Assembly: GCA_900128565.1 (NCBI GenBank)
Contig: LT635959.1
Coordinates: forward strand, 1 to 32,329
DNA from: Stramenopiles sp. TOSAG23-6
Lineage: Eukaryota
Reading direction: 5' to 3'
Length of the DNA stretch: 32,329 nt
How positions within the stretch are numbered: position 1 is the stretch's first letter; every line of letters begins with the position of its first letter. This document shows, piece after piece, positions 3,799 through 31,777 of this stretch. The notes under the pieces are model-generated. The model saw nothing but the letters and a program-made list of their open reading frames with translations, was not told the origin of the DNA and ran no database searches. Position numbers and translations under genes: made by a program.

Positions 3799-6193
3799 AT
3801 GATGATTGGTGGGGTGAACTTAAGCGCTGTAATAAAGTCAAATGACAATGAAGAATCATTTCTTCTTGTGGACGAAGGAAAATGTGGAGATATCACAACT
3901 TCACCTGAGCAAAAGAAAAATGTTCCAAACTTTTGTACATGTACTACAAAAAAGACCGAGTCTTTATCTTTCCAAAATCAACACGAAATGGACAACTTGA
4001 TGAGTGAGTCCGAGATGGACTTGTTTTCTACATTTGAAATTATGCTTGAGCAGTTTTCCTTTGGTGTTGGGGGTAATCTGACTGACGACTGCGAACAGTT
4101 GGAAGAGTCTGCCGCAAACTTTGACGACAAAATGATGGAGTATACAACTGGAACTGACGGTGAAGTTCACATGGTATTCAAATTGACTGAAGATATGTTG
4201 GAATATCTTCAAGGCCATGATGAGTCTTCTTGGGAGTATGTCTACTCGGAAGCACAAAAAAACAAAGACTCCTCTGAAAGTCAGCCAGTTGATGCTGACA
4301 GTGTAATTAAGGATGAATTTTTAAGAATCTCTCGTGAACAAACACCTGATATGTACGAGAGAAAATACCATCCCTTGCGTTTTTCAATCTTAAATTCATT
4401 ATACCTCGTTTCAATGTGGTTCATTCTCCTTGTCTCAACTATTGCAATGGATAACATCGTTGGCCAAAAGCTCTTTCAACCATGGGCATATACGAGTACA
4501 TTTAACCGTGAACTAATTGAATACAGATTTATGAGCAAGAGAAATTCATTCAATATGAACAAGAGAAATTCATTCAATATGAACAAGAGAAACTCATTGA
4601 ATACTCGTGAATTCGAAAACCTTGCACATGCAAAATATGAAAATGTATTCTATATGTCAACTTGGGCCAAAAAGAAATTAAAGCAACATCCAAAAAAACA
4701 TAATTCAAATGAAAACAAAAAAGATATTTTGAATCCTCCGGAGGTACTTTTTAATTATTACTTTCAATTTTTTTTTTCACAGTAAATTTCATACCTAACG
4801 AGTTTCAAATGTGATATATTTTTTCAGAATACATGTCAAATCGGCTTTGGTATGGCCCTCTTTGAGTGAATTAAATGCATATAATTTACCTCGTGGAAAC
4901 TATAATGAGTCAGTATTACCTATGCATAATCAAAATTTCAACAAAACAAACGATGACTTCTATGGGCCAATTGGAAGTAGAAATAAAAAAGACACATCTA
5001 AATTCATCCCCGTAAGTACGTACTCTGGTGCGAAGAACGAAACACTTAAGGAGAAAGTTTCTCCAGTTGGACCTGTACCAGCTAGTAATAAAGCTCAAAA
5101 GCATACTAAAACTGTCTGGTTTGCGATTGGTGAAAAAGGTGAATCTGTTCCCTCAGGAACGTACGAATACCGAAGTAATCATACACTCTTTCATAAAAGG
5201 AATAAATTCAAAATTAAAAAGGATGGTGCATCATCACTTGCTCTTGTATTAGCAAGTCCAATCGGTCAAAAATGGAAAGAATATGCACGTCAAGTTCGCT
5301 CCCAACTCTATGTTACAAGTGTACAAGTGTTAAAGGATGATGTTTTACTATCAAAATTATTCACTTTGTTCGCAAAAGAGCAATGGCAACGTAAATCTGA
5401 TAAAGATCAGCGCGATGCAATGGCAATGCAACTGGTGATAAGGACTAAAAGCACCGGGTCTCCTCAGTTTATGTCTGATTATGTACAGAATTTTTTAAAA
5501 CATCAGCATATTAATGAATTTTGTTCAAGACAACGCTTATCTGACAAAACAAAAAAGTGTTCATTTGAAGGAAACAAATCACTTGTACCTGTGTATGAGT
5601 TTGCTGTAGTTTCGCCAAAAATGCCAAGCGCATATTGGACTTACTCAACATACCCAACGCCTAAGGTGGACTCTTCATTCTTCTGCAATGAAAAAAAGTG
5701 TCCGTGGTGGGCAGCCATGTTACAGAATGACTCAAGCGAACGTAGCGCAAGTCTGTCTCATGTTGATTCGAAAGCTATGCAGTTGGTTTCAATGTCTAGT
5801 GCACTCACTAAGCTTGAAAATGATATAAGCCATCCTGACACGTGGGGGGAAGAGTTCAATTTTGATAATTTCAATTATGAGAATGCTGAAGAAAATGTCG
5901 CATCATTTGAAGATGCATTGAAATATGTTGAAGCAACACTTTCAGAAGAAGAATCTTGGTTAGTTGAACACCAAAGGCAACTATGGATTGAATTTGCAAA
6001 GACAGAAGTAGCACGTCAAGAATTGTTGTTGCAAAAAAACCTTGTTTATATTGCACGAGCATTCATGAAGGATCTCGAAGACAGAGCAGAAGTGCCAGCA
6101 GCAGCAGCAGCCCGGGCAGCAGCCGCAGCAGCAGCACCGGCAGCAGCAGCAGAAACAGCGGCGGCAGCAGCAGCAGCAGCAGCATCAAACTGA
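3799..6193 (+). CDS. Hypothetical protein, 2 exons (3799-4743, 4835-6193), ~767 aa, with one hydrophobic segment and a poly-Ala tail
   Basis: ORFs 3691-4785 and 4811-6193 join in frame (PPE|VKSALVWP) on removal of intron 4744-4834. Contains a 24-nt x3 repeat (MxKRNSxN) at 4531-4602 and a GCA tract at ~6097-6184. Confidence 0.6.
4744..4834 (+). other. Family intron 1, 91 nt, GT...AT
   Basis: GAG|GTACTTT...TACCTAAC...TATTTTTTCAGAATACAT|GTC. The CAG ending at 4827 gives a frameshift and stop. Confidence 0.75.
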
Positions 6194-6376
6194 TGTGAAT
6201 TTGGCCGTATAATTTACGTTTCTGTGAAACATATTTTGTGGTTCACAAAGAGGATGTGTACTATAAAGTAAAATAAAACAATTCGTAAAAGATTCCCTTT
6301 ATTAAATTTCAATGTACTGGCTACATATTTCATCATACTCCGAATACTCATAGCCAATCCTTGCTCAATGAAAGCA

Positions 6377-9300
6377 TTATTCATTAGATAACATACTACT
6401 AATATAATGCTTCCATTGTATATTCACGTATTTATATGTATAGCGAAGCTTGACATTTATCGTATTATAAACATTACGAATATAGAACTTACATATCATA
6501 TTTATTTTTTCCGCTGTCACTATAATTTTATAGTCATGGAGAAGCTTGTTATGTATTTTCTTATAAATATTATATGTATAGTAGGCATATAACATTTTTA
6601 CTCTATGAAGAGGCCACCTTTGCTTACATCTCGTAAGAAAAGACTGATACTTATCTAAATAATACTCTAAATCATTCATCCCCTGATAAATTATCTCTAA
6701 AAAAAAATCCAATAATTTAGTTTCGTTACACTGCATCTCCTGCTTCATTTTGGATCTGATGACAAGGTCTCTAGTAAAGTCAACAATTTCTTCTGCTGTG
6801 TGGTTTTGGGGAAAGGGTTCGAAACCTTTGAAATCTTCGAAATCTTCTAAATAGTACGCTTTGTGTAATATTTGAGGGGTAAATCTTAAATTTGTCGCAT
6901 CTTCCATAATTGCATTTCGAACTATTTCATCTCGTTGGATATCTGAAAGGCTACTAGCAAAACTTTTAATGCCTTCTTCATTCATATTGTGTATATCAAT
7001 ACCAAATTTGACGTCTATAGGAGAAACATTCGTCTCCTCTGAAATTTCTTTTAGTCGTATTTCTAGAAGCCTATCGCGATTCTTCTTATATACTCGCTGG
7101 TGATACTTTTCAGAAAATCCGGATAACTTTCTTTGGATTCGGTTAACTGATTTCAAATGTTTTCTGACATTTTCTGACTGAACATAGATAGAGGAAGAGA
7201 ACATCGTTTGAACAAGTTTAGAATCCGCTTTATCAAGAAGATTGTAACTTTTGACAATACCTTGTCTAGAATTTTCGTCTGAAGAATATATCGCATTGCA
7301 TGCTGTAAAGTCATTGATGTGTGACGTCGTGTTTCCTATTTGTGTTGAAGTCATTTGCTTTTGTTTGCATGATTTCTCACTAAATGAAGAATTGCCAGGA
7401 ATATTTGACAGCATATGATAACGTAACATATCTTCTGCCGTCACAACATTGCCTAATGTCGTTGTGTTGAATTTGGATTCTTTATACACAACATTATTAC
7501 TTTGCTTACTTATATCTATATAACAAACAAATACATTTCTTCGTATTGAAAGTTTCACAAAGCGTTCAAAGTTAAGCAATAGCGCAACTCTATTAATCTT
7601 TTTGTGAACTATATCCGATATTCTCTTTGACTCAGGAGTGCTGTTGTCAATAATTCCAATAAGAGCAAATTTTCCTGAACTAATATAGGTCATATTATTC
7701 GATCGCAGCGGAGGTACATCAAGTATTCTATGTCTTCTTCTCATCCGCCTGTTATCGCATGTACCCGCTAAAGAAATTGAATTTACAGCAACCTCATTTG
7801 AAAGCTCTGAATGAAAGTAAGCGTATATGCTCGAAATGTTTCCTTTAGTGTATACCCAATGATCCTCATCTAGTGGAAGTGTATAATTTTGTCCAATTTG
7901 AAGAGTAATTGGTTCATTGTAATGTTCTAATCTAATATCAATTGCACCTGAGATTAATTGAATAAAGACTTGTGAAACTTCAGTTCCATTCAAATAATTT
8001 CGTAATACTTTCCCAGGAAGGTCAGCAACAAAAGTTGCATCTAGATCTTCTGTTTTTGCATTTTCATTCACCCGTTCAAAGAAATTTCGATTATCATCAT
8101 ATTTAAATAGTTCAGGCATGAGCCATTCATTAAATCTCCATGGTGACCAAGTCAAATTTGTCGCTCCAAAATCAAAATCTGGATTAACAATTCGCTGATT
8201 CTGGTTATCATTCAAAGATCCCCAAAAGTCAAAATAAAGACTAAATCCTTCGCCATATTCTGAAGCATACTCACGCTTAATACATTGGCTAAAAGTGAAT
8301 ATCATATCCGGACTGAATTTCCATCTGTTTCTCTTTTTTTTGTGCCAGCCTAGCTTTTCGTAATAATCTTCCTTAAGTAAAATAATGGAATCTTCATTAA
8401 TACCTCTTATACCACCGGCAGGTACTATCTCTACACTCGTATATTGCTGAGTATTCCAATCAATCATCATGGTATAGCTATATCCATATAAACCTCGACC
8501 CCAGACATTATTATATCCTTTTGTGATAAAATGTGAATATGGCAAAAAACATTCGAATGTCACTAAAACCAATAAGCAAATCACAGTAAAATGATGCCAA
8601 CAATGAATCCTTTTCCTATCAATTTTCTCGCGCGATTCTTTAACATTTAACGTAGCAGGTAGTAAATATCTATCACGTTGATCATTGTAATAATAAATAC
8701 AACGTGAAGACATTTGGGAATTTGATAGTAAAGGCAGGGTATAATAAGACACATTACAAATATAATGCAATATATTTGAAGTGCGAGATAATACAAACCT
8801 AGGCCAACTCGGATTCCACCAAATACTTATTAATCCAATGCACACATGTGGAAATACACCAATTTCAAATAAGTTTACATTTACAGAATGAAAGAAAAAA
8901 CAAACCATACTGGCTACTACTCTGGTTTTTGGATGCATTAGCAAAAATCCTATACATAAATCGAAGCCAAGTCCGCCAGTATTGATAAATAATTTACGAA
9001 AATCTTCTTCAAATGTTAAATTAAAGTTATCTAAAATTGGCATTATGATGGGTTTCACATAAAACTGCATAAATGGAAGACGAGCAATCCATTTCAGTGA
9101 TTTGCCATTTACCCAATCGTTTGAAGAGGCTTTCTTTAAACCTGCTATAAAATAAAGAATGAAATTTATGATGCGTAAAAGCATTACGTTCCACGCTGGT
9201 ACATGGAAACCTTTATCCCAAAGAATTGCTTTAATTCGAATGGGATGAAAAATTTTACGAGATAGGAAAGAGTCAACCTTTTCACAACAGCGTTTTGTCA

Positions 9301-10808
9301 AGTTATTACGTTTTTCATTTTCAATTTTCCAAGTGCTCTTCTCCTTCTCTTCATCACTTGCTTTATATGTGATGAAACAGGAAAACAATACGCAATCGAA
9401 TGACCAACAGGCATGACACTCTAAAAATATCATCACAGTCTTAAGTGTTGCAAATAAATACGAGTGATTATTCCAGTGAGTTTTGTCTAACAAAAATAAA
9501 TACCAAGCACCAATAGCACAGATAAAACAAGAAAATTTGTAGAAAAATCCTAAAATAATTCCAATATGAGCAAAAGTAAGTACAGCTCTGAACAAAACGA
9601 AACCATCCCAATTTAAAGGAGTTATCCATGAAAAATAACTAAAATGACACTTGTCATTAGTCAACAAATACTGATTATAAAGACGTTCCATGATGAAATC
9701 AAACATCATTACAATACCGAAGAAAATTCTCCAAATTGCGAGAGACGAGCCATCTATGGGTGCACAAAGTTGTGCAACAATGTTATTCCAAATACTCAAT
9801 TTTACGTTTTTATCATTTGTATCATTTGTATCAATACTCAATTTTACGTTTATATCATTTGTATCATTTGTATCATTTCCATTATCTGCAATTTTATAGG
9901 TATCTTTATCTGTACTTATATCCATTGACATTTCAAAAAATCTTTGTTTATCACGACGTTCTCGTCTTTTCTCATCTCTCTGACGTTTATGTATTGTAAA
10001 AAAATATTTTTTTTCATAAAAAAAATCGTTAGGTACGAAATTTCATACCAAAAAAAAAAAAACATGATGAAGAAAAACGTACATCTACCATTTCATTAAG
10101 TGTTGCTTTTAAATAAGCAATTTTACGTTCGTATGTCATAACTATTTGATCTTCCCGTACGATTGAAGCTGAATCTATTGTCAATTGACTTATATCATAA
10201 TCCATGTTCTTTTTTTGATCATTTTGTAGAGTATTCAACGATTTAGAATGATTTCCACTGTCTTGTATAGAATGTTTCATATTTATGTCATTCGTTATGG
10301 TTAGGTTTTCATCTTCAGGAAGTGTATTTTCTGGAAGGGTGTACATTAATCCGACCTCAAGTGCAACAGTTGGATCTATCGTTTCATTTTCATGAATGCC
10401 TTTAAGTTTTATCAATTCTTCTTTCAATTTTTGATGTTTGATCTTTTTTTCTTTTATTCGTTCCATTTTTAAATTTTCCTCTCTCAATTTTCCCTCTTTT
10501 ATATGTTCAAGTTTCAATTTTTCTTCTTTTTCAATTGTTGTATCTTGTTTTATTGGTTTTATTTGACTCGAACAGATATTATTACAACACAATCGATTCA
10601 ATTCTGCATTCAGATTTCCTTGAAACAATTCAGTTTCATCCTCAATTGTTGGTGAGTTTGCACTTCGTCTAGATCCAAATTTAAATCCTAGACGCATTCG
10701 AGCAACGAATTCTATGGGAGAGGATGGTTTGTATGTTTTCTTTTTCATAATATTAGCTTTGTCCTCCTGGGCATTTATACGTAAATTTTGCTTCTCTTTC
10801 TTTGGCAT
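6377..10808 (-). CDS. GGCX: Vitamin K-dependent gamma-glutamyl carboxylase-like protein, 2 exons (10808-10083, 9988-6377), ~1445 aa
   Basis: HTTM/VKG-carboxylase motifs DGSSLAIWRIFFG, FLLDKTHWNNHSYL, YFIAGLKK, LPYSHFITKGYNN, GLYGYS, SLN..QRIVNP and FVADLPG. The upstream 259-aa ORF joins in frame through intron 9989-10082 (EMVD|KRQRDEKRR...FFEMSMD). Confidence 0.85.
9989..10082 (-). other. Family intron 2, 94 nt, GT...AT
   Basis: GAT|GTACGTTT...TTTCGTACCTAAC...AAATATTTTT...ACAATACAT|AAA. An in-frame CAG 9 nt downstream is an alternative acceptor. Confidence 0.75.
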
Positions 10809-11002
10809 TTTTTTCTTAATATATCAATATCTCTGTGCTATTTTCAATTATATTAAAATTATAGTTTAGCTATACTAACTATGTCGTGCGTAGTCGATTG
10901 TAGATACCTTGTTAAGATATACGTAAGATACGTTACTCTCGCTACACTACAGGTTTCGTTTCTGTGCAACTTGCATCAGATCACATAATCTCCGACTATA
11001 GC

Positions 11003-11022
11003 TAGGGTTAGGGTTAGGGTTT
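11003..11022. promoter_or_regulatory. Telomere-like repeat/telo-box TAGGGTTAGGGTTAGGGTTT in divergent promoter
   Basis: About three TTAGGG units between head-to-head GGCX and WDR34. Confidence 0.6.
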
Positions 11023-11145
11023 TTTTAACGTAAGTACGTAACGGTTAAAATAAAATTCACACTTCCAAAGCTTCAAACAAAAAAAAATCCAGAGACCAAG
11101 GTAAAGCCAAGGTAAAATGTCTATTTGATATACTCACTCTGAATA

Positions 11146-13044: not shown

Positions 13045-13091
13045 AAAATAATAAATAATTCAACTGAGTGAAATCGAATGTAGTATAATTA

Positions 13092-16000
13092 TTACTTGGC
13101 ATGCACAGCAGCATCTTTCACTTCAACGTAAGCCCGAACTGGATACAATGGCATTCTTCTTTGAAATATTTCCAGACCATCGGCATTAATGTTTTGTGAC
13201 TTTTCTGAGACGGACCTTTTCTCATTAGGATTTCTTACCAGCGTTGATTTAACTTCATTTCCAGTCGATACACAACAAAATACAGAACGTTCACTTCCAT
13301 CTTCAGCAATATAGGCATCAAAAAATTCAAGAAGCCGAGCAGGGGTATGTATTGCGAAAAAATATCTTTTTTTTGGTTTAAAAAATTTGTTAGGTACATT
13401 TTTTTATGGTTTTATGTTTTTTTGTTTTGAAATTCATTATGAAAACGTACAATATTCAACACAGCTGCGGCATCGCGTTCTTTTTCATTAAATAGAAACG
13501 TTCTACCTGAAATCTGTTGCCACATTTTTGAAGATTCTTCATTTAATGTTTTCGGTGTTTCTGAGAGCTGAGCAGCCAACGATTTTTTGTGCAAGTTGAA
13601 TGAATTAAATGCATTTTTCAAATGGTTTGGGTTATTTTTATCAATATCACCAGTATCTTGTTTTGCACCACCGTTCATTTCAACAAGAAGTTTACGGAAA
13701 TCTTTCAAAAATAGGAGAATACGATCCTCTAAATATTCTCCAGTAGCCTTATCACTTTGTATAATAATTTGACAACCTAGTACACCCCACTCCGTTGCCA
13801 TTCCTGACCATACGAGATAGCCTAATTGTTCTTTTGTCCGTAGTTGATCATAACAGGGTTCATTCATAATATTCATGAGTAACTGTAACACTGCTGACCT
13901 TTCACCACCATCAGGAAATATTCCATCTGATTCTGAATCATTACTATTTGATATATTTGAAGGATTAATACTTTCTACAGGACAATCCATTCCACACTGA
14001 AAAACATACCGAATTGCATTACAAACCTGTTCAGGATTAGATTCTTTATGTTCAAAATAGTATACAGTTTTGGTATCTAATCGAACAGAACGTGGTGCAG
14101 GTTGTTGTGATGCAAAAAGACGCGAACATTTCAACAACTCAGGAACCAAAATAGCGCATTGTTTTGCATCTGACGTAAGACAATTGCCATGTATTAAAGT
14201 TTCACAAAATATTCGATGAAGTAAACGAGGTATAAATGCATTGACTTGTTCATGTGTAATATCATCAATTACAGCAAGTTTATCTCTATAATGCCATTGT
14301 GGATTTAATAGAGCATGACGTGTACAATACATTGCATGTTGATACGGTGCTTCCATCTCAAAATCTTCATATCCGCGTTTCAATTTATTCTTCAGACTTA
14401 TAAATCTCGGAATGTTTCCTTTTTTTTCTGATATTTCAAAAGACTTCATTTTCTCTACAATTTTCTTCAAGAGAATGGACATTTTACTATTATACCCACT
14501 CAAAACTAATTCTAAACCAGACCAACTTTCAGATAGCGCATAATTCAAACCAGCTAATTCAGCAAAATAGCTAAACTCTGTAAGTTCATCGGTAATCATA
14601 CGTTGATATAATGATACCATTACTGAAGCTTCAGGAGATTCATATGCAACAGGTGTTAACAATCGACAACAAAATGCCATTTTTGGAACTTCAAAATAAC
14701 CATCTTGTTTATACCATAATCGAATATAGTCTGTGTCGAGAATGACACGTGGCGGCTCGGTACACGTTTTTTTAATACCATTAGGTAGCGGATACAGTGC
14801 TAAATCTTCGGGTAAAAATGGATTAATTTTCGGCATAAAAACTTCAGATATAAATTCGTCACCAATTTCCCAATTTGTTTTGACTGTACTAGCAACAGAG
14901 TTGATACTATGTTCAGTTCCATACCATTTTTCTTTCATTAAAGAAATATTGGGGTTATCTGATGTATTTAATGTATTATTATCACAAACACCTAATTTTG
15001 AAACTACAAATACAAAACTATTCTCTGGTTTTAAATAATTTAAAAAGTTTTGAATTAAAGAAGAATCAAATTCACGAAATAAACTTCGACCAGTTAAAAC
15101 AAATTCCGCTGGATATTTCTGTAAATGACCCGCAATAGTAGTACAATTTGACATTGGCTTTCTTTTGGATTGAAATTTTAAACTAATTTCGTTTAATAAC
15201 TTACATTCTTCCCAGACTGATTCATCCGGTCCATGGGTTCGAAGCATCTTCAAATATGAAAATATTACAGAGCACACACCATTCACATTTTGAAGGCCTT
15301 CTTCAGTGACTTCCACGGTAACTTCAAACATAGAAAAGCATGACTGTGAACTACTTGTACCAGCACTTAGTTCATTGGCCCAACCTTTCGACTTTAAAAT
15401 AGACAAAATTGACCCTGCGCTCTCATGGCCGATCAAGTGAGACAGATATCGCATGTATTGTAGAAAAATATTTCAAAAAAAAAACCTTAAATTTGTTATG
15501 TACAAAATTTCGTACGAAAAAAAATTCGAATTTGAAAAAAAGTAAAACATACATGGGTTTCGTCTTCCAGTGTTTCTCAACAGGAGGACAAACAAACGTT
15601 AAACGAACATAACGAAGATCTTTTACTGGGATAATATTTACCTTTTTACAAAAACAATCCGTATAAGGATTTAACTCGAATGACGGTGCAGAAATTTCAG
15701 AATTTTTAATTTTTCCAAATTTTTCTCTTATCCACTTTTCTTGAACATCCAAAGTCTCACGACCGATGACGCATAGTTTCATTAAATTTGCCGAATAATG
15801 TTTGGCATGAAAATTAAGTAATGCTGAACGAACGTCAACTCCTTCTTTTTCTGGAATAGTTTTTAGTGTTTCCAAATTTCCAGTTCCGAATTTGTGCACT
15901 GGATGGTCTGGACGAGCTAAACTTTTACTCAACTGATAGAGGCGCCAATGATCAGACTGTAAATTTTTAGAATTTTCACTATCAACAGCTTTTAGTTCAC

Positions 16001-16427
16001 GCCCTGTAGCAGACGCGGTGAATAATGGTGCAATAAAGAACTGAGCAAAGCGATCAAGTGTACTTTCAAGGTGTTCATGATTCACGTGAAAGTGAAAGTT
16101 TGTACTCTCTGCTCCAGTAAATGCATTACTCATACCACCGTTACTTGAGAGATGAGCAGAGTAGCTATTTTCATCGGGGTATTTCTTTGTTCCTAAGAAA
16201 AGCATATGTTCAGTAAAATGAGCCAAACCGGGTAAATTATCAGGGTCGCTATAGTGACCAACCTTTACATCTAACGCTGCAGCTGCCTTGTCCGTCTGCT
16301 CATCTTGGATTAGCAAACAAGTGAGTTTATTCTCTAAAACAACAACTTTATAGTTACATTTATCATTGGCCGACTTCTCCACACCATTAGATAAGCGCAC
16401 TGCATCCATTGATCCATGTACCGGCAT
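13092..16427 (-). CDS. IDE: Insulin-degrading enzyme (insulysin, peptidase M16A), 3 exons (16427-15553, 15452-13451, 13346-13092), ~1043 aa
   Basis: GLAHFTEHMLFLGTKKYPDEN (HxxEH), YLSHLIGHE and YDQLRTKEQLGYLV. A last exon without its own ORF call encodes TPARLLEFFDAYI...FQRRMPLYP and ends in TAA at 13092-13094. Confidence 0.93.
13347..13450 (-). other. Family intron 3, 104 nt, GT...AT
   Basis: ATT|GTACGTTT...TGTACCTAAC...ATATTTTTTCGCAATACAT|ACC. Gives VLNI|TPARLLEFF. The nearest AGs (19 nt up, 46 nt down) are out of frame. Confidence 0.88.
15453..15552 (-). other. Family intron 4, 100 nt, GT...AT
   Basis: CAT|GTATGTTT...TTTCGTACGAAATTTTGTACATAAC...GAAATATTTTTCTACAATACAT|GCG. Gives WKTKPMRYLSHLIGHE. 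Confidence 0.9.
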
Positions 16428-16528
16428 TTCCCCCTTTCAATTGGTGATTCTTCGAATGTTGCGCTTTAGAAGACAAGTTTTTTTTTTCTCGACGCCGCTT
16501 CGATATTTATTTGGAATTTTTCGGTTTT

Positions 16529-16554: not shown

Positions 16555-16737
16555 GACGTTAATTTTTAATAATATTAACGTACCGTTGTGGGTTGCAGAC
16601 CTCCTCGGTATACACAAGGTAGGCCCTTATCAACGTACAATCTTTTGACAAGATACACCCTCTTGACGCAACACTAGTGAGCCAGGTCCCGATTCTAGTC
16701 GAAATCGTAGAAGGTGCGTCCTCCAACATTACACACG

Positions 16738-18799: not shown

Positions 18800-19154
18800 A
18801 CACAAAAATAGGCAAATGCTAGGTGAAATGTGGAATTATATGCCTAGCTCTGAATGCTTTCAAGCTCGTGAGATGGGTGAGATGATGAAGTGAAAAGAAA
18901 ACTTTTGAAAGCAAGTTTTGTCGAGATTAATCTCGAAAACATCAATTGGCCGCAATTGGCCGAGTAACTGTTTGACTGCTGTCAAAAAGCAAATTGAAAC
19001 AGGTTTGACAGGTTCGTACCCGAGATTTATTTAAAAGAAACATAAAAATAGCAAAGAAATGATTTTGAGAATGTTTTATAATATATAAGACAAATGAAAT
19101 CATTTAATGTAATAACTATACGTACATATCCAGAAACTTTACACCAAATCTGAA

Positions 19155-22100
19155 TCAATTTTTCTTTCCATTTGCAATACTAATCAGTTTTTTGGCTCTA
19201 GTTTGTCCCAAATCCAAAAGAAGGGATAAGAATTCTCCTCTCTTTTTCAAGGTATTAATATTTTCATTTTCATCATATGAAGCTACTAATTCTTTTGGTG
19301 TACCAAATTCTGATACTATCCCATCATCCATTACAATAATTCGGTCACAATCAATAATTGTTGAGAGTCGATGAGCGATAAAAATACAAGTACAGCTGGC
19401 GAATTCTTCACGAATCGTGTTTTGAACTAGTATATCTGTATCATAGTCAACACTTGCTGTTGCTTCATCTAACATTAGAATTTTACAATTCTTTAATAAA
19501 GCTCTTCCCAAACACAATAATTGTCTCTGTCCTACACTGAAATTAGATCCACTTTCTGTTACAACTGATGATAAACCACCTTCTCTCGCTTCAATAACAT
19601 CTTTTAACTGACATCTACCGAGAGCATCCCATATTGTTTCATCTGAACATGTTTCAAATGGATCCAAGTTTGAACGAACAGTGCCGTAAAATAATACTGG
19701 ATCTTGTGGAATTATTGCAAGTCTTGAACGAAGTGTGTGCAATCCAAGTTTTGAGATATCTCGTCCATCAATTTTAATGCAACCACCTGCATGTTCAACT
19801 AAACGATAAAGTGCTACAAGTAGAGAAGACTTACCAGCCCCAGTTCTGCCACAGACGCCAATTTTTTCACCGCCATTAATTGCTACAGAGACACCACGAA
19901 GAGCAAGAGGGAGACCAGGTCTATAACGAAGTTGTACATCCTGAAATTCAATAAGTCCCTTTGAAGGCCATACAACGGATTGGGTAGCTAGAGTTTGCTC
20001 ACCAACATTATTATTATGAACCACCATCACAGTTTCATTCTCCTTTACTATACTTGGCGGATCACATGGTAAATGTCGTGGAGCCTCACTTTCAAAATTA
20101 CTATACGGATTCGATGTACTTGCTCCCATATACTCCATAAGTCTTTCTACTGCATTTAAATGAGTCTCCGTTTCAGCAACTTGCCTAACACCCCAACTCA
20201 AAGTCCCCATTACTTGAGTTATATACACTAAAGCTAAACCAACCATTGGTGCATTTTTCTTCGCATTTTCGTTTTCGCCGAAATGTAAGGTTGCGACAAC
20301 TGCAGTTGCAAATATTAAACTACTTCCAAGAAATTCAAGTCGTATACCTAACCATCTATTTGCTGAATTTCCATGAAAAAACGCTCGATGATGAGTGTCA
20401 AGAAGCGCACAATTACGTGTTGCTAAATGTACTTTGGAAAAATATTTCAAAAAAAAAATTCAAAATTTGTTAGGTACAAAATTTCGTACGAAAAAAAGTT
20501 CGAAATTGAAAATAAATAAAACATACATAATCTCCAATACAAAAGGAACGAATTGAAGGTAAACCTGAAAGAGTTTCACTTAAATTTGAAAAGATTGGAG
20601 CTGAAGCAAGAGATCCTATACGCTTTAATTCACGTGAAGTTTGTCTATAAAACTGTAAAATTAAATAATACATAATTAATAATGGTACTAAGGGAATTGC
20701 CATATAATATCCATTAATATAACAAACCAAAGCTAATGTGCCAATAACCTCAAATATACATCGTATCATGGTGCTCATCGCTTCCCGTAATTGATTATCA
20801 GCCAGATCTACATCTTCTGAACATCGACTTAATATTCGCCCGGATGGAGTTGTCTCAAAAAACGTTAAAGGAGATAAAAGTAATGAAGTTAAAAATTCAT
20901 TATGAAGATTTGTTGCTGCTCGAAGACCACCAATACTAAAAAATAATTGACATAGGAAATATGCAACCAAAGCACCGAATGTCCAAAGAGCATAAAATCC
21001 TAGCCACCAGTAGTGAGAATGCTCTGGATTAACTTCCGCTGCATCTTCAGTCCAAAATGCCAACCAAAGATTTGTAAAAATTTGAATTGCTTGCTGTAGA
21101 CTAAACATAAACGATAGACATATGATGACAAAAATTGCTGTTGAATTTCCTTCGATTCGCTTATTACTTTTAGGATTTCTCGCAAACATCTTAAAATACA
21201 TTAATATTACTGCCATTTGAACGCTACCTTTTTGTCTAGCATCTTTCTCAGTTAAATGACCAGCTAATCCTTTCCCTTGAAACTGTTTTTTATCTAACTT
21301 TGTTTTATCTTCATTAACTTCACTCTCACTCACTTTGTCTTTTTCTATTTTCAATGTAATCTCATTTGTTGTTTTATTTATAATATCATTTTCATTTATC
21401 TTTTCTTCATCAACTCCATGTGATGCCATATGTTCCAAAAAGTTTTGTGATGATTCTTTTAAATTTGCAAATGAACCATCATCAACAATACAACCATCTT
21501 TTAAGACAAGCACACGATCAACTCGAGGTAATAAATGAAGCTGATGCGTAGCCACGATCCGAGTTTTGCCAGTCATTTTAAATAAACCATCAAAAATTAA
21601 TCGACCAACGTGAGAATCAAGAGCACTGAAAACATCATCAAAAACAAAAATCTCACTATCTGAATAGAACGCACGGGCAAGAGCTATTCTTTGTTTTTGA
21701 CCACCGGATAAATTGATTCCCTTTTCACCAATTTCAGTTGAATCGCCGGCAGGGAGTAATTCAAAATCATATTTCAACTGACTAAATTCAATTGCTCTAC
21801 TGTATAATTCTCTATCAAATGGTTCAGATCCGCGAGATAAGCATATATTTTCCCTCACAGTAGCATTTACAATCCACGCTGTTTGGGGTACATAAGCTGT
21901 TGTTCCACAAGTCTGTAGACTTCCTTCCGTGTATATCATTTCACCTAAAATACTTGATAGTAGACTTGATTTACCGCTACCCACAGAACCACACACTGCT
22001 ATTAATTGACCTTTTTCAATAGATAAATTAATATCATTTAGACTAAAACCAATTTCATCATCATATTTTGCTTCTTCAGGAGAAGATTGTTTCCCTTCTG

Positions 22101-23684
22101 TTTCATTCATTTTTGTTTTTTTATCCTTATCCTTAGTCTTCTTAGCCTTATCTGTTTCATTCATTTTTTTATCCTTATCCTTAGTCTTCTTCTTATCCTT
22201 ATCTTCTTGACGATACCAGACAAATTTTGCATTTTTGATTTCAATGACATGATTAGTATCATTTTCAAGTTTTAATACTTCTTTAACTTCTGGATGAATC
22301 ATAAATTTAGAAATTCGTACATTCGCAATTCTAAATGAAACAAAAGCATTAATGATAAAAGGTAAAACAATAATAGGAAACCGAACCAAACGGAAAATTG
22401 ACAGAGCAGTAAAAATTTTTGATGCAGTCATTTCATTTCCAGTCAACGAATATGTAGCAAAAACAGCGAGAGAGACAAACATGGGTGTTAAATTCCACAT
22501 TGTATAATTTATCATTTGTACTATAATATGAGTAAATAATGCGTCAATCTCCTTTGCTCTAGTTTTATGTATTTGATCACTAAATGAATCTTCCCAACTA
22601 TATAGTTTTACAACTTTAATTCCGGCTATTACATCAGTAATTAACTTTACTCGAGCATCGGTTTGCTCTACTACACGTTTTCTAAGTCTTTCTAAAATTT
22701 TGACTAGACGAGCTTTTAGTGGCATTACAAGAACCATGGATTATGAAAAATATTTCAAAAAAAAAACTAAAATTTGTTAGGTACAAAATTTCGTACGAAA
22801 AATAAAAATAAATTCGAAATTGAAATGAAAACGTACATAACTACAAGACCAACTAATGAGGGCCAACCTATATAATAATATAATTGAGAAAAGGCAACAA
22901 CTATCTGAAAAGGCGCACTCCATAAATTATGCATATATGGAGTAAACCTCATTATTCGACCTGCATCATTAGACACAAGGTTGACAACATTTCCAGCAGA
23001 AAATTTTAAATTTGGACTCAGTTTTAAAACTTTTCCAAAAACACCAACGATAACAAAAGCTCTTACTTGCATAGCAATCCGATATACACCATGAAAATAA
23101 ATATTGATGAAAACACTTTGAAGAAATCTTGCTAAAAATAAAGAGAGAGCCCAGATGTAACCTAGTCGTATTCCTGTGTCATAAAGTTCCTCAGTAGCAC
23201 CTTTCTCAAAAAATTGTATCATTAGAGAAATAAACACTGGAATGGAGTATTGTAGAATGTCGTGCAGTAATTTATAAAATCCAGCGCATGCAAAAGTACA
23301 ACTAAATTCACGACGAATAGCACGTATTAAAGAAGGTTTCTTTTTCTTTGTTGGCTCCGTCGTAGCATTTTCATTAGTAGGTGCTATGGCACTTGAATCA
23401 ATTGAATCTAGATTACAAAAATCTAACTCTTCTTTCCATCGCTTATCAAATGCAGTACTCCATATTCTAGACTTATCAGACTCGAGTATATCAGGAATAT
23501 CTTCCATTTCTAGTGTTTTTTTTCGAGCAAGAGAGATTAAATTCTGAATCCACCAAAAACTCAGACGCGAACAGAAGTTTGCTTTCCCTTCACCACAAGG
23601 AGCAACAAGAGGTACATTGGGAGAAGAAGACAAGGTTTCATCATGCTTTTGACTTTTTTTTGGAGCATCATTCAACTTTGTCAT
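19155..23684 (-). CDS. ABCC/MRP-family full-length ABC transporter, 3 exons (23684-22837, 22735-20527, 20426-19155), ~1442 aa
   Basis: TMD-NBD-TMD-NBD layout with [70 protein letters not shown] and MLDEATASVD. Confidence 0.93.
20427..20526 (-). other. Family intron 5, 100 nt, GT...AT
   Basis: TAT|GTATGTTT...TTTCGTACGAAATTTTGTACCTAAC...GAAATATTTTTCCAAAGTACAT|TTA. Gives IRSFCIGDY|LATRNCALLD. The AGs 5 nt up and 4 nt down are out of frame. Confidence 0.9.
22736..22836 (-). other. Family intron 6, 101 nt, GT...AT
   Basis: TAT|GTACGTTT...TTTCGTACGAAATTTTGTACCTAAC...GAAATATTTTTCATAATCCAT|GGT. Gives GWPSLVGLVVMVLVMPLKA. The AGs 31 nt up and 23 nt down are out of frame. Confidence 0.9.
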
Positions 23685-23889
23685 TTTCAATTGTAAATAA
23701 GTTGCTGACTTACAGAATAAAATCGGAACACAACAACAACAAAACAAAAGGTTGACTTTTACTTGCGCTTCGCTTTGACACGAAATATCGAAATATTGAA
23801 AAAAATAATAATACTAATTTGATTTACTTTACTTGCACCAATAAATCCATTATGAAATAATAGAAAAACGATGATTTCAAACACAATTT

Positions 23890-24977
23890 CTATAATTTAG
23901 ATTTTTCTCTCTGGGCTTTACTTGGTAATTCTGTCTGTTGTTGCCACATGACAACTTTTTCTCTTAAACTTTCTATAATTCGTTCTTGTTTTGATATTTT
24001 TTTTTGTTGCCTTTTTACCACATTTTGAAGTTCTTGAATTCTTTCCATCGCTTGTTCCTGGATTTTTGTAAAATATTTCAAAATTTTTGATTTTTTTTAT
24101 TAGGAATAATTAGGTACAAAATTTTCATAGTAAAAAAAAATGGAAATGAATGATATAAACATACATGAGTTAAATTGTCGATGACTTTCTCGCTTGTATT
24201 ACTACTATTCTGCCGTTTTTCTAACGCTCTTCGTCGTCTTCTCTCTTCTTTTCGTGCTTTTTTTGCAATTAACTCGGCATCAGTTTTTGTATTTTTTGTA
24301 TTTTTTGTATTTTTTGTATTTGTTGTATTTTTTTCATTGTTTTTGTTTTGTAAAGAACGAGTTAAAGACGTTGGAATACCACGCTCAGTTTCACCGTCTT
24401 CATAAATGACATCATATGCTCCTTCTTCTCTGATACTGGTAACTTTTGCTCGTCTCCATGTTTTCCCCCTATATCGGACTTCTATACTTTCATTAACTTC
24501 AAATGCATTTCTTATTTTCATTGCAGTAAATCCACTACCACCATCAACTGTGGCTGCCTCCATTCCTAAATCTGACATACCCCCAATAGACTTTGGCAGC
24601 CTTTGTTTTTTTGGTGTTAACAATTTTGTTTGAACCTCTGAGTGTTTGTTTTTTGGTTCACTAACCTCGTTTTTTATAGAAGTTTTTGTTCCTTTTTCAT
24701 TATTTTCCATTATAGTATTTTCACTTTTGTTTATGTCTTGCATACCATTATCACAACCAACATCTGTACTTGTACTTTTTACTTGAGTAATAGCACCACC
24801 TAAAACACGGATACGCTCTCGAGGTACTTCACTTTCCCCACCAAGTGCCGAGTGACTATATAACAAATCAAATGTACCTTCTTCTCGAATGCCCATTACC
24901 TTCGCTTCTACCCACTCTCCCATATTTTGATAATTTGCTAAAACGTCTTGTCCAAATGCTATAATTGGCTCTGACAT
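23890..24977 (-). CDS. Tandem Tudor/Agenet-like domain protein with C-terminal coiled coil, 2 exons (24977-24165, 24057-23890), ~326 aa
   Basis: Two Tudor-like units (GQDVLANYQNMGEWVEAKV..GTFDLLY and FEVNESIEVRYRGKTWRRAKV..YDVIYEDGETE). In-frame join NLTH|EQAMERIQ. Confidence 0.7.
24058..24164 (-). other. Family intron 7, 107 nt, GT...AG (canonical-ending member)
   Basis: CAT|GTATGTTT...TTTTGTACCTAAT...GAAATATTTTACAAAAATCCAG|GAA. Confidence 0.85.
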
Positions 24978-25267
24978 TACTCGTTGTGTGAAATGATGTT
25001 TACCTGTGCTGCTTATAAATTCCAATGATTTCACTATTTACGAAAGTGTACTGAGTTTGTCGTTTTAAGTAGGACATAATATATCGACGGTTGAGCCGTT
25101 TCATTTCATAATAGCTAGCCTTGACACGTGGCACAAAAATTCAAGCACGAAATCGGTGGCAACAAAATCCAACAAATCGCGAATCGAACCACGAGTCATG
25201 GCCAAACACGAGGACGTCTTCCTGTTTCCTTTCGTTGCGGATAGTTAGATTTTGGCGATAAAAGAAG

Positions 25268-25461
25268 GTACGTTCTTTTTAGACACATTAACTTTTTAGT
25301 ATCTACACATTGCTTCAACATTGATGTAAATGTAATCTTTCATGGGTTTAGATTTCCCCTACTTTTATCCGTGAGAATTCATATATTTTGGTTGCCATAT
25401 GTATTTCCTTGACAATTTGTACTCACTCGTAACACCGCATGTATACTACAACACACTACAG
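25268..25461 (+). other. Probable canonical GT-AG 5'-UTR intron of ATP synthase beta
   Basis: AAG|GTACGT...CACTACAG| ending 8 nt before the ATG at 25470. Confidence 0.5.
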
Positions 25462-25469
25462 TCCGAAAA

Positions 25470-27659
<2,190 letters not shown>

Positions 27660-28065
27660 ATATATACTTGATGTTACCTAGTGTATATGTAGTATATTTA
27701 TATGGATACAATATCTTCATATTTGTATATGGTGTGTATAGCTGAATGAATGCGTATTTTGAAATGATACAAATGTCTTTATTGTTGCGAATTTTGGTAC
27801 AAATTTGTTACCTAAGTCTGTGGTAGTAGATATAAGGTTTACCTTCTTTTTAGTTTGTTTACAGTAATCGTTTAATATTTCACAAGAAATACATGAAAAC
27901 AGTTTACCTGTCACATGAGAGAAAATTTTGAAAGAATGAGATAAAAAACGTTGAAAACATTTTATTTTTATTTGTAAATCTTTTCTATTTTGTGTTTCAT
28001 TTTAACCCATCAAATTATTGCACGCTTATATGTAAGTATTCTTACTGCTGGTACGGTTGCATTGT

Positions 28066-28135
28066 GAGATTCCATACCATTTTTTTATAAAATGTACCTA
28101 ATTTTCAATTTGTTTAAAAAATGGTATGGAATCTC
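28066..28135. repeat. Perfect 20-bp inverted repeat with 30-nt loop
   Basis: GAGATTCCATACCATTTTTT (28066-28085) and AAAAAATGGTATGGAATCTC (28116-28135). Confidence 0.9.
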
Positions 28136-28143
28136 GTAGTACA

Positions 28144-28668
28144 CTACGACAAGGTTTTTCTTATAGTTCTCAATGTAGTCAACATTTTCAGTCTATCAAT
28201 TTTTAGAAACAATCCTATAAGTGTCGCGTATGTACTACTTGAAGAGCGCATGGAAAGTAGAGCTATATCTACATCTTCTTTATATTCTTCGGGGATATCC
28301 GCGAAACTAAAGGGGTTTTCTTTCACCCTTTCCATCGTTAGTTTCTTCCCATGTTTATAAAATTCTTTGCACTGGCTTTCCGAAAACTTTTCACGTTCAC
28401 AAATCTTTTTGACTGTAGGCGGATGAATCATAGATTGAAGTTGTTCATCTGAGACATGACGATGTTGTCGCGTGCCTTTTTCTTTACCAATTTCAACAGG
28501 ATTTTGTGGTTCGCGTCGCTTCAACATATGTTCCCGTGCGCTTGATGTATTGTGAGGAAGAAACTGTTTACCTTGACCAAATTTGGAGCTACTCGTATTT
28601 GTAGAACCACTTACATGTACAACGAAGATCAAAAGTAGCCGATAACCCCAAACTGATTTAATGGCCAT
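28144..28668 (-). CDS. Hypothetical secreted protein with a DUF4116-like segment
   Basis: ATG start and hydrophobic N-terminus; VKENPFSFADIPEEYKEDVDIALLSM resembles one DUF4116 unit. Confidence 0.55.
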   Translation of the reverse strand: MAIKSVWGYRLLLIFVVHVSGSTNTSSSKFGQGKQFLPHNTSSAREHMLKRREPQNPVEIGKEKGTRQHRHVSDEQLQSMIHPPTVKKICEREKFSESQCKEFYKHGKKLTMERVKENPFSFADIPEEYKEDVDIALLSMRSSSSTYATLIGLFLKIDRLKMLTTLRTIRKTLS

Positions 28669-28862
28669 GGTTATTTAAACTCGAGTTACACAAGTTTGGT
28701 TTATAGCTGCAGCATACACGTGCAGGCGCGACTTGATCGATCCAATCAAATATAACTTACTATGCGCGCGCAATTTTTCTAAAAAAAACAATTTTCACAC
28801 CAAAATTCGCGATTTCGTGTTTTTCAGTAATACAATGCTTGTATAAATTTCAAGAAATAAAC

Positions 28863-30609
28863 TTATTTATTTATATCATTGAGGTCTCTCTTTACTGTCC
28901 CACATTTTTGAGGAGTTTGAGATTCTGAAGAATTCCTTACAGGCTTCATTGGACTATTTACTTTTTCAATATTATCGAGCATTTTGTCTAGAATGTTGTC
29001 TATACATTTATCATTAAATGCAGAATGTACACCAAGCTTCATCTTTTCTAACACCATCTGTCCTTTATTAGAATTATTCAAGTTTTGAGTATTTTTTACA
29101 TCACTCTTCATATTCTTTTCTTGCTTTGACACGATCTTTTTTACATCACTCTTCATATTCTTTTCTTGCTTTGACACGATCTTTGGCTTTGAACAATAAT
29201 ATATCTGATTTGTAGACAATTTTTTAATACTTGAATACATATCTGATTCCACAGAAACTCTAAATTGCATGTATAGGAAAAACAATATGATACACTTGAA
29301 ATTTGGTTAAAACAAATCGTAAAACAAAAAAAGATCTAAAATATATATCTTTGAAATTCATGATGAAAACGTACATACCAACAGTCATACCAGCAGGAAC
29401 TATAACCTGTACGGGGGTTTGTGTCCCAGGTTTCATGAATTCTAAAGTAGAGCCTGTTCCTGCAGTGGGGGGAACTTCTAAATCTAGTATCAATGGTGGT
29501 AAAGATTTTAATACAGCTTTTTTTCGTAGAAAACGCACAATAATTTTTTTGTCAGTCTCATTGGGTAAATTGCTTGATTCAGTCTTCGGTAGAGTACTCA
29601 ATTCAGTAGAAATTTCTTGTGCTGTCTTTGACGAAGCAGATACTCCGTTAATAGCCAAGACTGCATCCCCTACTTCTATTTTATAGCTATGCTGTTTTAT
29701 GTCACTGGAGCTACCTTTCTTACTTATGCTAAAACTACGTAGAGGAAATGCCACTGCATCAACATCCTGAATGGTTACTGCAGTCATTTTGAAATCTTTC
29801 ACCTTGTAAACTGTCTGATCCGTAAAAACAAAACCTTGCATATATTCATGACAAACGACTTGATTTTGAAAAACAACTTCATACACGTCAGATTTCACTT
29901 TACTTTTTGTTTTCTTTCGATGAACACGTTCCGCAGCTCTTTGGGCAGCTGCTAAACGTTTTTTCTCCTCCATTTCTTTTTTAGTGATGATTACGGTCTT
30001 ACTGGAAGAATTAACACTATTTGCTTCAGCTTCAACGCCAGCAAAAAGTCGGAGAGATTCATTTGCTGCGGTTTTTCGATGTTCTCGGACACCAAGGTCA
30101 CCTTTTGCTTCATCATTACCTTCAGGTGGTACGTTTTTTGATAAACGAATTTCTTTTACCGTAATTCCAGACGTTGTTGAGTTGTCCGGTAGCCATGATA
30201 CTGAAAATGTAAGCCCTTCTTCCATATCATTATCGACAGAAGACACTGTCGCAGGACACCACTCCCCCTCCCAAAGTGCTTCAACCAAAGTCCCAACTTT
30301 AAAAAGTATTTCAGGCTTTTCAGTTTCAAGAAAGTTAAGCAACCTTTTTTTTGAGCCACGCCTTACAGAATTCACCTTCGACTTTTTGAAGTTACCAACG
30401 TTTTTAGTGTTTTTTTCCCTTTTCTCATCACTGCTTAATTGACGTTGGCGCTTTTTATTTGAACGAGCTTTTGTTAAAAGCGCTCCTAAAGACTCCTCAT
30501 CTGAAGAGTCCGAATCGGAATCACTCGTATCAACTTTGCTCATTTCGAAATTATTCTGAATTGATTTTGAATCAAGAGATTTGCCTCGAACATCTGCAAG
30601 GTCTCCCAT
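28863..30609 (-). CDS. Protein with Tudor-like and PDZ-like domains, 2 exons (30609-29375, 29268-28863), ~546 aa
   Basis: FKVGTLVEALWEGEWCPATVSSV (Tudor-like) and IEVGDAVLAINGVS (PDZ-like). Join gives VIVPAGMTVGMQFRVSV. A 39-nt tandem duplication (KIVSKQEKNMKSDVK) lies near 29095-29180. Confidence 0.65.
29269..29374 (-). other. Family intron 9 (diverged), 106 nt, GT...AT
   Basis: TAT|GTACGTTTTCATCATGAATTTCAAA...TTTTAAC...TTTTTCCTATACAT|GCA. An in-frame TAG 9 nt downstream is an alternative acceptor. Confidence 0.75.
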
Positions 30610-30870
30610 TATTGAAAATACTCAGAGTAAAACAATAAAAAATTGGGAATTGGCGGTAATTACTCTCTTTTGACTGACATTTTACAAATATTTATTACGC
30701 GACAAACCTGTTTCTTTTCTTTTTTTTTCGCTCCTCTGGCTCTAGACACAGAGGGGGAATTCAAATTTCGTCTCAAATTTCAATTATATAATCATATTGT
30801 TCGTATCGATTGTTCTAGCCTAGAATTCACGCGACCCTTCACATAAAAGTAGTGTGTACATCAATATAGA

Positions 30871-31713
30871 ATGATTCACGAAATAATTTTAATTAGTGCA
30901 ATTTTAGTAACACATGCTTTCGCAAAGTCATATCCGCATGATGAGCTAAACTCTGATGCTGCTATTGATAGTATTCTCGAGGAACACCCAGTGAACTACG
31001 AGTTTGAGGTGCCTGCTGTGCCAAGGTTTAACTTTCATTTACCTGATTGGGACGTTGATGCTGAGTATAGCTTCCTTGAATTAGGAGCAAAAGCATTTGA
31101 TAGTACAAAAATTGTGGAAGATGACCCAATACAATGTAGCACCGTGTGTAAACCTCTCAGTGTTGCTAAGAAAGAAGCAGCAGCAGCAAAAGCCGCGGCA
31201 CAAAAACCAAACCCAACAGAAGAGTCAAAATCTGCTAAACCATCTCCCTCTAGTTTTGCCGAAATTGGAGCAGATATTTCGCACAGGATGTCATTTTTAG
31301 AACTTTCCGTTTCGAAACAAATTTGCGAAGGTAAAAGCGGTGGATGGAATGATGAGAAAAAAGAGTGTGAACATTTTATGGTTGCAACAAAAGAAGAAAT
31401 GGCTTGGAATGGGAAAGAAATGTTCGAACTTTGTAGCAAAGAAATTGGTACTCTATACGTGCCATGTAATCCTTACCAAGCCCTGGCGTTGTCACATTCG
31501 TATGATATACCTGATCATAGTTACTATTGGCTTTTTCCAGGAGGACGTCATGTACATTTTATTTTTTCTCAATTTCGAATTTATTTTTCGTACGAAATTT
31601 TGTACCTAACGAATATTTTTTTGAAGTATTTTTCCAAAATACATCAGCCTGGATATATTCCACCTGGTTCAACTCTTTGTTTTTTAATCACACTAAAAAA
31701 AGTTGTTTCATGA
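30871..31713 (+). CDS. Secreted protein with degenerate FKBP-like C-terminal domain, 2 exons (30871-31551, 31645-31713), ~249 aa
   Basis: Signal peptide; repeated SFLE/SFAE motifs; ELCSKEIGTLYVP...GYIPPGSTLCFLITLKKV resembles the FKBP C-terminal pattern. Confidence 0.6.
   Translation: MIHEIILISAILVTHAFAKSYPHDELNSDAAIDSILEEHPVNYEFEVPAVPRFNFHLPDWDVDAEYSFLELGAKAFDSTKIVEDDPIQCSTVCKPLSVAKKEAAAAKAAAQKPNPTEESKSAKPSPSSFAEIGADISHRMSFLELSVSKQICEGKSGGWNDEKKECEHFMVATKEEMAWNGKEMFELCSKEIGTLYVPCNPYQALALSHSYDIPDHSYYWLFPGGRHVHFIFSQFRIYFSYEILYLTNIFLKYFSKIHQPGYIPPGSTLCFLITLKKVVS
31552..31644 (+). other. Family intron 10, 93 nt, in-frame and stop-free, GT...AT (or AG at 31647)
   Basis: CAT|GTACATTTT...TTTCGTACGAAATTTTGTACCTAAC...GAAGTATTTTTCCAAAATACAT|CAG. 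Confidence 0.85.
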
Positions 31714-31777
31714 TAATAACTGGTTTATAAATTGAAAAAAACAATGACTCAAAATAATGAAATTTCCTGAAATTTCC

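Follow-up and report, generated by a model that had tools for sequence, protein, structure and literature searches.

A stretch of 32,329 bases from Stramenopiles sp. TOSAG23-6 (contig LT635959.1; the window in what follows) contains ten related segments that interrupt coding frames, all of them in sense orientation and spread over eight genes. These segments are probably true introns that form one multi-copy, introner-like family and are cut from GT to AT by machinery of the major (U2-type) kind, in a compact genome that is otherwise poor in introns. For five of them, namely the intron at 27474-27564, both introns of a gene for an insulin-degrading enzyme (IDE) and both introns of a gene for an ABCC/MRP transporter, the AT end is established; for the intron at 4744 an AT end is likely, judging from the reading frame. 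The introns are cited here by their first position in the window (Table 1). An initial annotation, made from the letters alone, had listed ten related introns, and all ten were found where it had put them, on the same strands and as members of a single repeat family.

An intron family with GT at the 5' end and AT at the 3' end

The ten segments measure 91-107 nt each. As had been described, all of them start with GTAY (seven GTAC, three GTAT), and in eight copies the donor reads GTAYGT. The 3' end is CAT in nine copies, in the form ATACAT in six of these and GTACAT, ATCCAT and AAACAT in one each, which agrees with the initial description of nine ends in CAT, mostly ATACAT; the tenth copy, 24058-24164(-), ends in CAG. 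The last dinucleotide is hence AT in nine copies and AG in one, so that the family as a whole departs from the canonical 3' end of U2-type introns. A branch-like motif had been ascribed to every copy. This was confirmed for nine: TACCTAAC occurs exactly in seven, and one-base variants occur in the introns at 15453 (TACATAAC) and 24058 (TACCTAAT), but the intron at 29269 has no motif of this type. In the nine copies the predicted branch motif is of the CTAAC/TACTAAC type and precedes a pyrimidine tract. Its penultimate A is 35-52 nt away from the end of the intron, and a conserved block, ATATTTTTT, is found 3' of it. A 5' site of the GTATGT/GTAAGT type and a branch motif of the CTAAC/TACTAAC type are the consensus signals of U2-type introns.

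The likeness among the copies goes beyond these signals. From end to end, and thus also outside the signals, the four copies of subfamily A (15453, 20427, 22736 and 31552) show 77-88% identity; for the remaining copies the figure is 56-76%. When an nhmmer profile built from the ten, which match it by construction, was run against the window, no further copy was detected. Two lone motifs were noticed, a TACCTAAC lying antisense in the ABCC gene at 20345 (+) and a GTAYGTTTT in IDE exon 2, on its sense strand, at 14009 (-); the rest of the family is missing around both, and they are probably chance occurrences.

Exact removal of one intron in RNA

Contigs from three metatranscriptome runs (X6, X10 and X11) and from one run of seawater DNA (X3) were placed on positions 26320-32329 of the window. 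Two RNA contigs, one from X6 (1528 nt, depth 17) and one from X11 (753 nt, depth 14), join position 27471 to position 27563 and skip 91 bases. Both are polyA metatranscriptome runs and they come from different studies. The joint can slide by two bases and is equivalent to removal of exactly 27474-27564, so that precise removal of this intron is seen in RNA. No such joint was present in the DNA run X3, in which two contigs (27016-27528 and 27516-28895) cross the intron. Moreover, the X3 DNA and the X6 RNA contig have the same five base variants (26554, 26704, 26944, 27010 and 27289), so that a strain lacking the intron is not the source of the spliced RNA.

The initial annotation had named two results that would undo its reading: transcripts that retain the segments or use AG acceptors, and a terminal T that is a miscalled G. 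At 27474-27564 the two joining contigs of X6 and X11 show neither retention nor an AG acceptor. Positions 27564 and 31644 are not among the base differences listed for the X3 DNA, which indicates that the terminal T is not a miscall. Run X10 yielded fragmentary contigs, none of which bridges 27474-27564 either way, and no RNA contig bridges 29269-29374 or 31552-31644; these are uninformative in both directions.

Exact removal of four introns judged by homology

The claim that a cut after CAT restores a collinear IDE was borne out, and the peptides quoted for it were reproduced. Both IDE junctions are gapless against six out of six homologues, and the product joined at the first of them is collinear with the structure 3tuv_A. 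At the first junction, residue 294 of exon 1 corresponds to residue 330 of 3tuv_A and residue 2 of exon 2 to residue 333, which leaves two residues between them on each side, the split codon plus one more. The second junction reads ..VLNI|TPARLLEFF..; a PDB search with the last exon (84 aa) gave no match, and this junction is placed by the six database homologues.

The same holds for the ABCC gene, in which cutting after CAT had been said to restore an MRP-type sequence. The product is collinear with 8rq3_A, 7mit_E and 8wi5_A, and the quoted peptides were again obtained. Around the first junction, residue 322 aligns with residue 462 of 8rq3_A and residue 1 of the next exon with 467, with exactly 4 residues between them on either side; against 7mit_E the corresponding pairs are 324 with 458 and 1 with 461, again with equal numbers of residues between, 2 in this case. 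At the second junction, exon residue 733 aligns with residue 976 of 8wi5_A and residue 7 of the next exon with 986, with 9 residues between on both sides.

Reading frames and alternative AG acceptors

Excision from GT to AT (or from GT to AG in the case of 24058) joins the two longest flanking frames in nine of the ten introns. The intron at 31552 alone is unconstrained, and its 3' end is left undetermined by a length that is a multiple of 3 and by a CAG 3 nt downstream. A broad list of distant GT/GC..AG pairs was of no use, because any long deletion may remain in frame, and it was dropped for a test in which the conserved donor was retained and each AG from offset 30 to +60 was tried. No in-frame AG was found in this way for the introns at 4744, 13347, 20427 and 27474. 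At 4744 the frame is closed by every AG from -52 to +32, and at 20427 a frameshift results from those at -5 and +4; the AT is used over nearer AGs in both (at 4744 the nearer one is a CAG at -7). The sole in-frame AG for 15453 lies at +33 and would delete MRYLSHLIGHE, and those for 22736 lie at +48 and +54 and would delete aligned residues. It had also been claimed that AG acceptors fail for both IDE introns, both ABCC introns and the intron at 4744. With the donor retained, all AGs between the branch motif and the end and the first one downstream were tried for these five, and each gave a stop within 0-28 codons.

Abundance of the family

In the seawater DNA run X3, the bins over two of the three introns covered have depths of 2370-37486 as compared to about 7 on the flanks, the bins over 29269-29374 having depths of just 2 and 167. 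These depths show that the family is a very abundant repeat; being sums over contigs (1459 were placed), they are not a copy number. Loose ends of contigs in the placed runs hold further copies that start with ATGTAYGTTTT. The initial annotation had held GT-AT introns to be the norm in this organism. Judging from ten introns in 32 kb, the high depth and the loose ends of other copies, this may be so.

Depth was uneven in RNA too. In runs X10 and X11, over 31546-31746 and 27325-27726, the intron family reaches summed depths of 329-9251, and the bins of the adjoining exons 0-14. Possible causes, any of which would suffice, are unspliced RNA from many loci, stable excised introns and carry-over of DNA.

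Searches with short motifs returned no copies from other sources. A 17-base core motif was found at 64 loci in public metagenome contigs; nhmmer recognised 0 family members there, with two partial matches at E about 1e-3, and the 64 loci were dismissed as chance matches. The 22-base motif of subfamily A gave 0 matches in viral contigs and 0 in genome contigs.

Position of the cut and origin of the terminal AT

The cut can be moved along the repeated bases at the boundaries, so that the product is unchanged at several shifts and six introns can be read as AT-AC. The single shift common to all ten is shift 0, which gives GT-AT (GT-AG for 24058). The conserved GTAYGT block supports the GT-AT reading, as far as a donor consensus may be taken as a guide.

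The exon bases next to the donor are not random. A is found at -2 in nine of ten introns and T at -1 in nine of ten; AT precedes GT in 8/10, against a background of 0.092 on the sense strand of the exons (P = 2e-7). The 3' AT may consequently have arisen as a target-site duplication or belong to a proto-splice site, and the excised piece resembles an element together with one of two AT copies at its flanks. A duplication of TA, of the Tc1/mariner type, was considered and rejected by inspection, as the flanks past AT are not conserved.

A model for these observations can be proposed. Each copy would supply its own signals, that is, a yeast-like 5' site (GTAYGT), a branch motif of the CTAAC type (TACCTAAC) and a T-rich tract, and the cut would follow a fixed ..AYAC-AT motif located 35-52 nt 3' of the branch A, which would produce the GT-AT termini. 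We infer that this is done by the major spliceosome, whose demand on the last base would be relaxed or shifted. As to how this AT is chosen, the obvious candidates would be its conserved ..AAYAC-AT context and the fixed distance from the branch motif. The family may have spread as a mobile element bearing its own 5' site, the 3' AT being provided either by a 2-bp duplication of an AT target or by insertion at AT| proto-splice sites through reverse splicing; by either route, removal of the element plus one AT would give back the original coding sequence. Spread by reverse splicing would fit the preference for AT| sites and the placement of all copies within genes and in sense orientation. The modified system of 3' splice-site recognition that the initial annotation had suggested would be plausible. 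Going further, we consider it conceivable, at somewhat under an even chance, that in MAST-3-type stramenopiles the last-base specificity of the major spliceosome moved from G to U after a burst of thousands of introners with a duplicated AT at their 3' boundary.

Several observations weigh against this interpretation. A single junction among the ten is proven by RNA, and at that junction (27474) GT-AT and AT-AC are not separable, the joint being printed as AT..AC. The argument from a uniform rule presumes that all copies are cut at the identical place. For 4744 the support is that of the reading frame. Close in-frame AGs are present at 9989 (+9, +18), 29269 (+9, +39) and 31552 (+3), and use of those 3-9 nt downstream would make a canonical GT-AG intron at the cost of a deletion of 1-3 residues; these three introns can therefore not be called AT-ending from sequence. 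As a consequence, the claim that GT-AT introns are spliced here stands for one junction seen in RNA and four collinear junctions; these three may end in either AT or AG. With regard to a mobile origin, position -3 matches in 3/10 cases within loci versus 27/90 between loci, that is, there is no locus-specific match, and a 2-bp duplication is thus inseparable from insertion at AT| or from an exon preference. Complementarity between the ends is weak, with a mean of 5.4/12 versus 3.5 for internal controls. A DNA transposon would predict intergenic copies, and none were found in the window.

Alternative explanations

Most copies could be AT-AC introns, with both ends cut 2 nt upstream (AT|GTAY...AYAC|AT), in which case no unusual 3' recognition would be needed. 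A first-base A and a last-base C are compatible in both spliceosomes, in which an A...C pair substitutes for G...G. The six introns that permit this reading do so with an identical product, and the form in which the RNA joint at 27474 is reported agrees with it. The remaining four do not allow it: the exon ends in AG at 4744 and in TT at 13347, a shift of -2 turns 22736 into AT-CC and not AT-AC, and 24058 ends in AG. Two of these, 13347 and 22736, have junctions fixed by homology. The GTAYGT block, moreover, would come to lie at +3 to +8, presumably out of register for pairing of the U1/U6 type. We regard AT-AC splicing of most copies as unlikely.

A second alternative is that a transformed minor (U12-type) spliceosome cuts the family, GT-AT being a tolerated subtype there. 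GT-AT ends have been reported to be splicing-competent (PMC1557818) and to make up 17% of 1,014 non-canonical U12-type introns in Physarum (bioRxiv 10.1101/2020.10.12.336362). In addition, TACCTAAC agrees with the TCCTTAAC consensus at 6/8 positions, and the 5' GTAT together with a run of T at +7 to +9 resembles RTATCCTTT. Yet positions +5/+6 are G, A or T followed by T in all ten copies and never CC, which is not the RTATCCTT signal, and the 35-52 nt from branch motif to intron end contrast with the short distance that is typical of U12-type introns, 9-12 nt in Physarum, so that the motif does not lie near the 3' end. This makes a U12-type origin of the splicing quite improbable.

It might also be supposed that the segments are removed without a spliceosome, guided by pairing of the intron ends, for which the non-conventional introns of euglenids and the hairpin-forming introners of Amoebophrya would be models. 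ATGTA at the 5' junction is the reverse complement of TACAT at the 3' end, bases 1-4 are paired with the last bases in the minimum-energy folds of 15453 and 20427, and the introners of Amoebophrya are described as having inverted and direct repeats across non-canonical borders (PMC7789003). Nevertheless, an alignment fold predicts 0 consensus pairs and the individual folds do not surpass those of shuffled sequences (z from -1.83 to +1.60). The possible helix consists of 4-5 A/U-rich pairs that show no covariation, GTAC facing ATAC in most copies, and the conserved GTAYGT and CTAAC blocks are hallmarks of spliceosomal introns. We consider removal of this kind very unlikely.

An artefact (a T miscalled for G, pseudogenes with frameshifting insertions, or RNA from an intron-less allele) is largely refuted and hardly credible: although the window seems to come from a low-input assembly, with three Ns, and the gene model published for this IDE is severely disrupted, the T stands at the homologous place in nine independent loci, the independent seawater DNA agrees with it at both positions covered, frames of 820-1450 codons are restored solely by exact removal, and the DNA contigs that hold the intron have the five variants of the spliced RNA contig.

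Genes of the window and source lineage

The window is eukaryotic and compact, with about 36% G+C and three Ns, and long open frames in the standard code make up about 81% of it. Besides the ten family members no other introns were seen in it, and a search of the window against Rfam matched no RNA family. The genes are listed in Table 1.

Table 1. Introns of the family, followed by the genes of the window (positions counted from its first base)
Feature	Position	Strand	Length and ends	Remarks
Intron 4744	4744..4834	+	91 nt, GTACTT...ATACAT	Unnamed gene; removal gives one 820-codon frame
Intron 9989	9989..10082	-	94 nt, GTACGT...ATACAT	HTTM gene; removal gives 1450 codons; junction in low-complexity region
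Intron 13347	13347..13450	-	104 nt, GTACGT...ATACAT	Second IDE intron
Intron 15453	15453..15552	-	100 nt, GTATGT...ATACAT	Subfamily A; first IDE intron, codon split AT|G
Intron 20427	20427..20526	-	100 nt, GTATGT...GTACAT	Subfamily A; second ABCC intron
Intron 22736	22736..22836	-	101 nt, GTACGT...ATCCAT	Subfamily A; first ABCC intron, codon split AT|G
Intron 24058	24058..24164	-	107 nt, GTATGT...ATCCAG	G where the other nine have T; joins 291 + 55 codons
Intron 27474	27474..27564	+	91 nt, GTACGT...AAACAT	C-terminal extension of ATP synthase beta
Intron 29269	29269..29374	-	106 nt, GTACGT...ATACAT	Divergent; unnamed gene 28863-30621; frame joined
Intron 31552	31552..31644	+	93 nt, GTACAT...ATACAT	Subfamily A; near 3' end of unnamed gene 30853-31713
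Gene of intron 4744	3640-6193	+		No Pfam match
HTTM / vitamin-K-carboxylase-like protein	6377-10823	-		Pfam/PDB/database matches
WD40 protein	11143-13044	+		Pfam/PDB/database matches; frame looks intact
Insulin-degrading enzyme (IDE)	13092-16436	-		Pfam/PDB/database matches
Ldh_2 family protein	17627-18835	-		Pfam/PDB/database matches
ABCC/MRP transporter	19155 to about 23750	-		Pfam/PDB/database matches
Gene of intron 24058	about 23900-25037	-		Upstream of the ABCC gene and separate from it
ATP synthase beta with C-terminal extension	25727-27660	+		Pfam/PDB/database matches
Gene of intron 29269	28863-30621	-		No Pfam match
Gene of intron 31552	30853-31713	+		Unnamed

Pfam gave no family for the gene of the 4744 intron, the genes at 139-3552 and 28863-30621, or the two frames at 16711-17519. 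The gene at 139-3552 (-) is a frame of 1137 codons without interruption, with no Pfam match at E <= 0.01 and one N at 3343. At 16711-17519 (+), between the IDE and Ldh_2 genes, there are open frames of 118 and 158 codons that lie in different frames and overlap by 25 bases; no family intron is found inside, and a frameshift, an unrelated short intron or chance are all possible. The gene at 6377-10823 (-), of 1450 codons, encodes an HTTM domain (E 1e-56) and the lumenal domain of vitamin-K-dependent gamma-carboxylase (E 8e-28), a combination that is unexpected for a heterotrophic flagellate, and has long N- and C-terminal extensions without a family match. ATP synthase beta continues for about 100 residues past its conserved end, and the intron proven by RNA sits in this extension; its P-loop region contains two Ns (26300 and 26319).

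The best match of IDE exon 1 was a EukProt record whose label starts with GSMAST32, with 810 of 836 aligned residues identical. This protein departs from the IDE of the window only where its gene model leaves the open frame. The second-best match (P0005) is 73% identical, followed by oomycetes, diatoms and fungi at 55-60%. We take the label GSMAST32 to denote a MAST-3 stramenopile, which is a reading of a label only, and the genome probably belongs to a marine stramenopile of the MAST-3 type. In the one named database model of this IDE (P0001, EukProt GSMAST32...), 210 of 1046 residues of the open frame are missing, in 19 blocks; at the first family intron it contains 13 residues read from the intron, and it runs on into the second. 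It seems that a gene caller restricted to canonical sites invented GT-AG introns within a continuous IDE frame.

Implications

Few signals in eukaryotic gene expression are as constant as the terminal AG. Since the GT, the branch site and the T tract are kept and the last base alone is altered, the family is a natural experiment on how the second step of splicing recognises that base, for which U2AF35, Prp8, Slu7/Prp18 and pairing between the first and last intron bases are candidate factors. It also bears on the creation of introns by mobile elements, given that an element that needs a non-AG site for its exact removal can spread only in a host able to use such a site.

There are practical consequences as well. 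Gene callers limited to GT/GC-AG introns mis-model such genes, so that for these abundant ocean protists the numbers of genes, the completeness scores and the gene losses claimed may have to be looked at again. If the interpretation is true for the MAST-3-type lineage, GT-AT would be its main intron class, published models built on canonical sites would be systematically broken, and reported gene decay could in part be mis-annotation. In MAST-3A, PMC5778133 describes no full-length gene for an axonemal dynein heavy chain and reports 'advanced pseudogenization'. It may be speculated that, if GT-AT introns are common in that lineage, inserts that break the frame could mimic such decay.

Comparison with known systems

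No AT-ending intron family of this type was reported in the literature searched, supplements lying outside the search, and GT-AT introns appeared there just as a rare subtype. A search for introns or splicing in MAST-3 returned no relevant paper, and the main texts of the MAST genome papers PMC5778133, PMC12614181 and PMC8163842 do not mention non-canonical splicing.

U12-type GT-AT introns have the same terminal dinucleotides and are splicing-competent elsewhere, but they are rare, with 7 cases in human plus mouse (PMC1557818). As described in the available sources, they are accompanied by RTATCCTT and by a branch site close to the 3' end, whereas the family of the window has GTAYGT, a distant branch motif and the rank of dominant class.

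Amoebophrya, a marine protist, offers another parallel in its repeated intronic elements, the borders of which are not GT-AG (PMC7789003). There, direct repeats 3-5 nt long overlap with the boundaries between exon and intron, and the account given describes no clear signature at the two terminal nucleotides, inverted repeats of 8-20 nt that form hairpins, and variable splice positions (PMC7789003). In the window, by contrast, the family shares a uniform GT-AT pair and strong internal signals, and its folds reveal no significant structure.

A closer precedent for the splicing itself is the tunicate Fritillaria borealis, in which 95% of the introns are reported to be non-GT/AG, some of them ending in AT or AC at the 3' side, and divergent U2AF paralogues to recognise the non-canonical 3' ends (PMC13326754). 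According to that report, non-GT/AG introns, including those with 3' AC or AT (AU), are handled there genome-wide by a U2-type system (PMC13326754). In the window, however, the 5' GT, a strong branch motif and the T tract are retained, and the last base alone differs.

As for the family as such, it resembles introners, the transposon-derived intron families described in Micromonas, Aureococcus, Chrysochromulina, Symbiodinium and others (PMC9860276, PMC12130899). These consist of numerous similar copies, about 100 nt long, that are located in unrelated genes and are spliced out as introns, and the ten similar copies in eight genes fit that description. Known introners, moreover, carry one splice site and find the other at a short repeat in the flank, so that the mRNA is exactly restored (PMC9860276). 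The family of the window differs from them in its 3' site, which is AT in 9/10 copies, in a possible duplication of 2 bp that is not separable from a site preference, and in having, within the window, no copy outside genes and no clear terminal inverted repeat. The surveys of these introners accept AG and AC 3' sites only and drop families with unfamiliar sites unless these are supported by transcripts. What is new here is an introner-like family with a uniform GT-AT boundary, a variant on the known introners.

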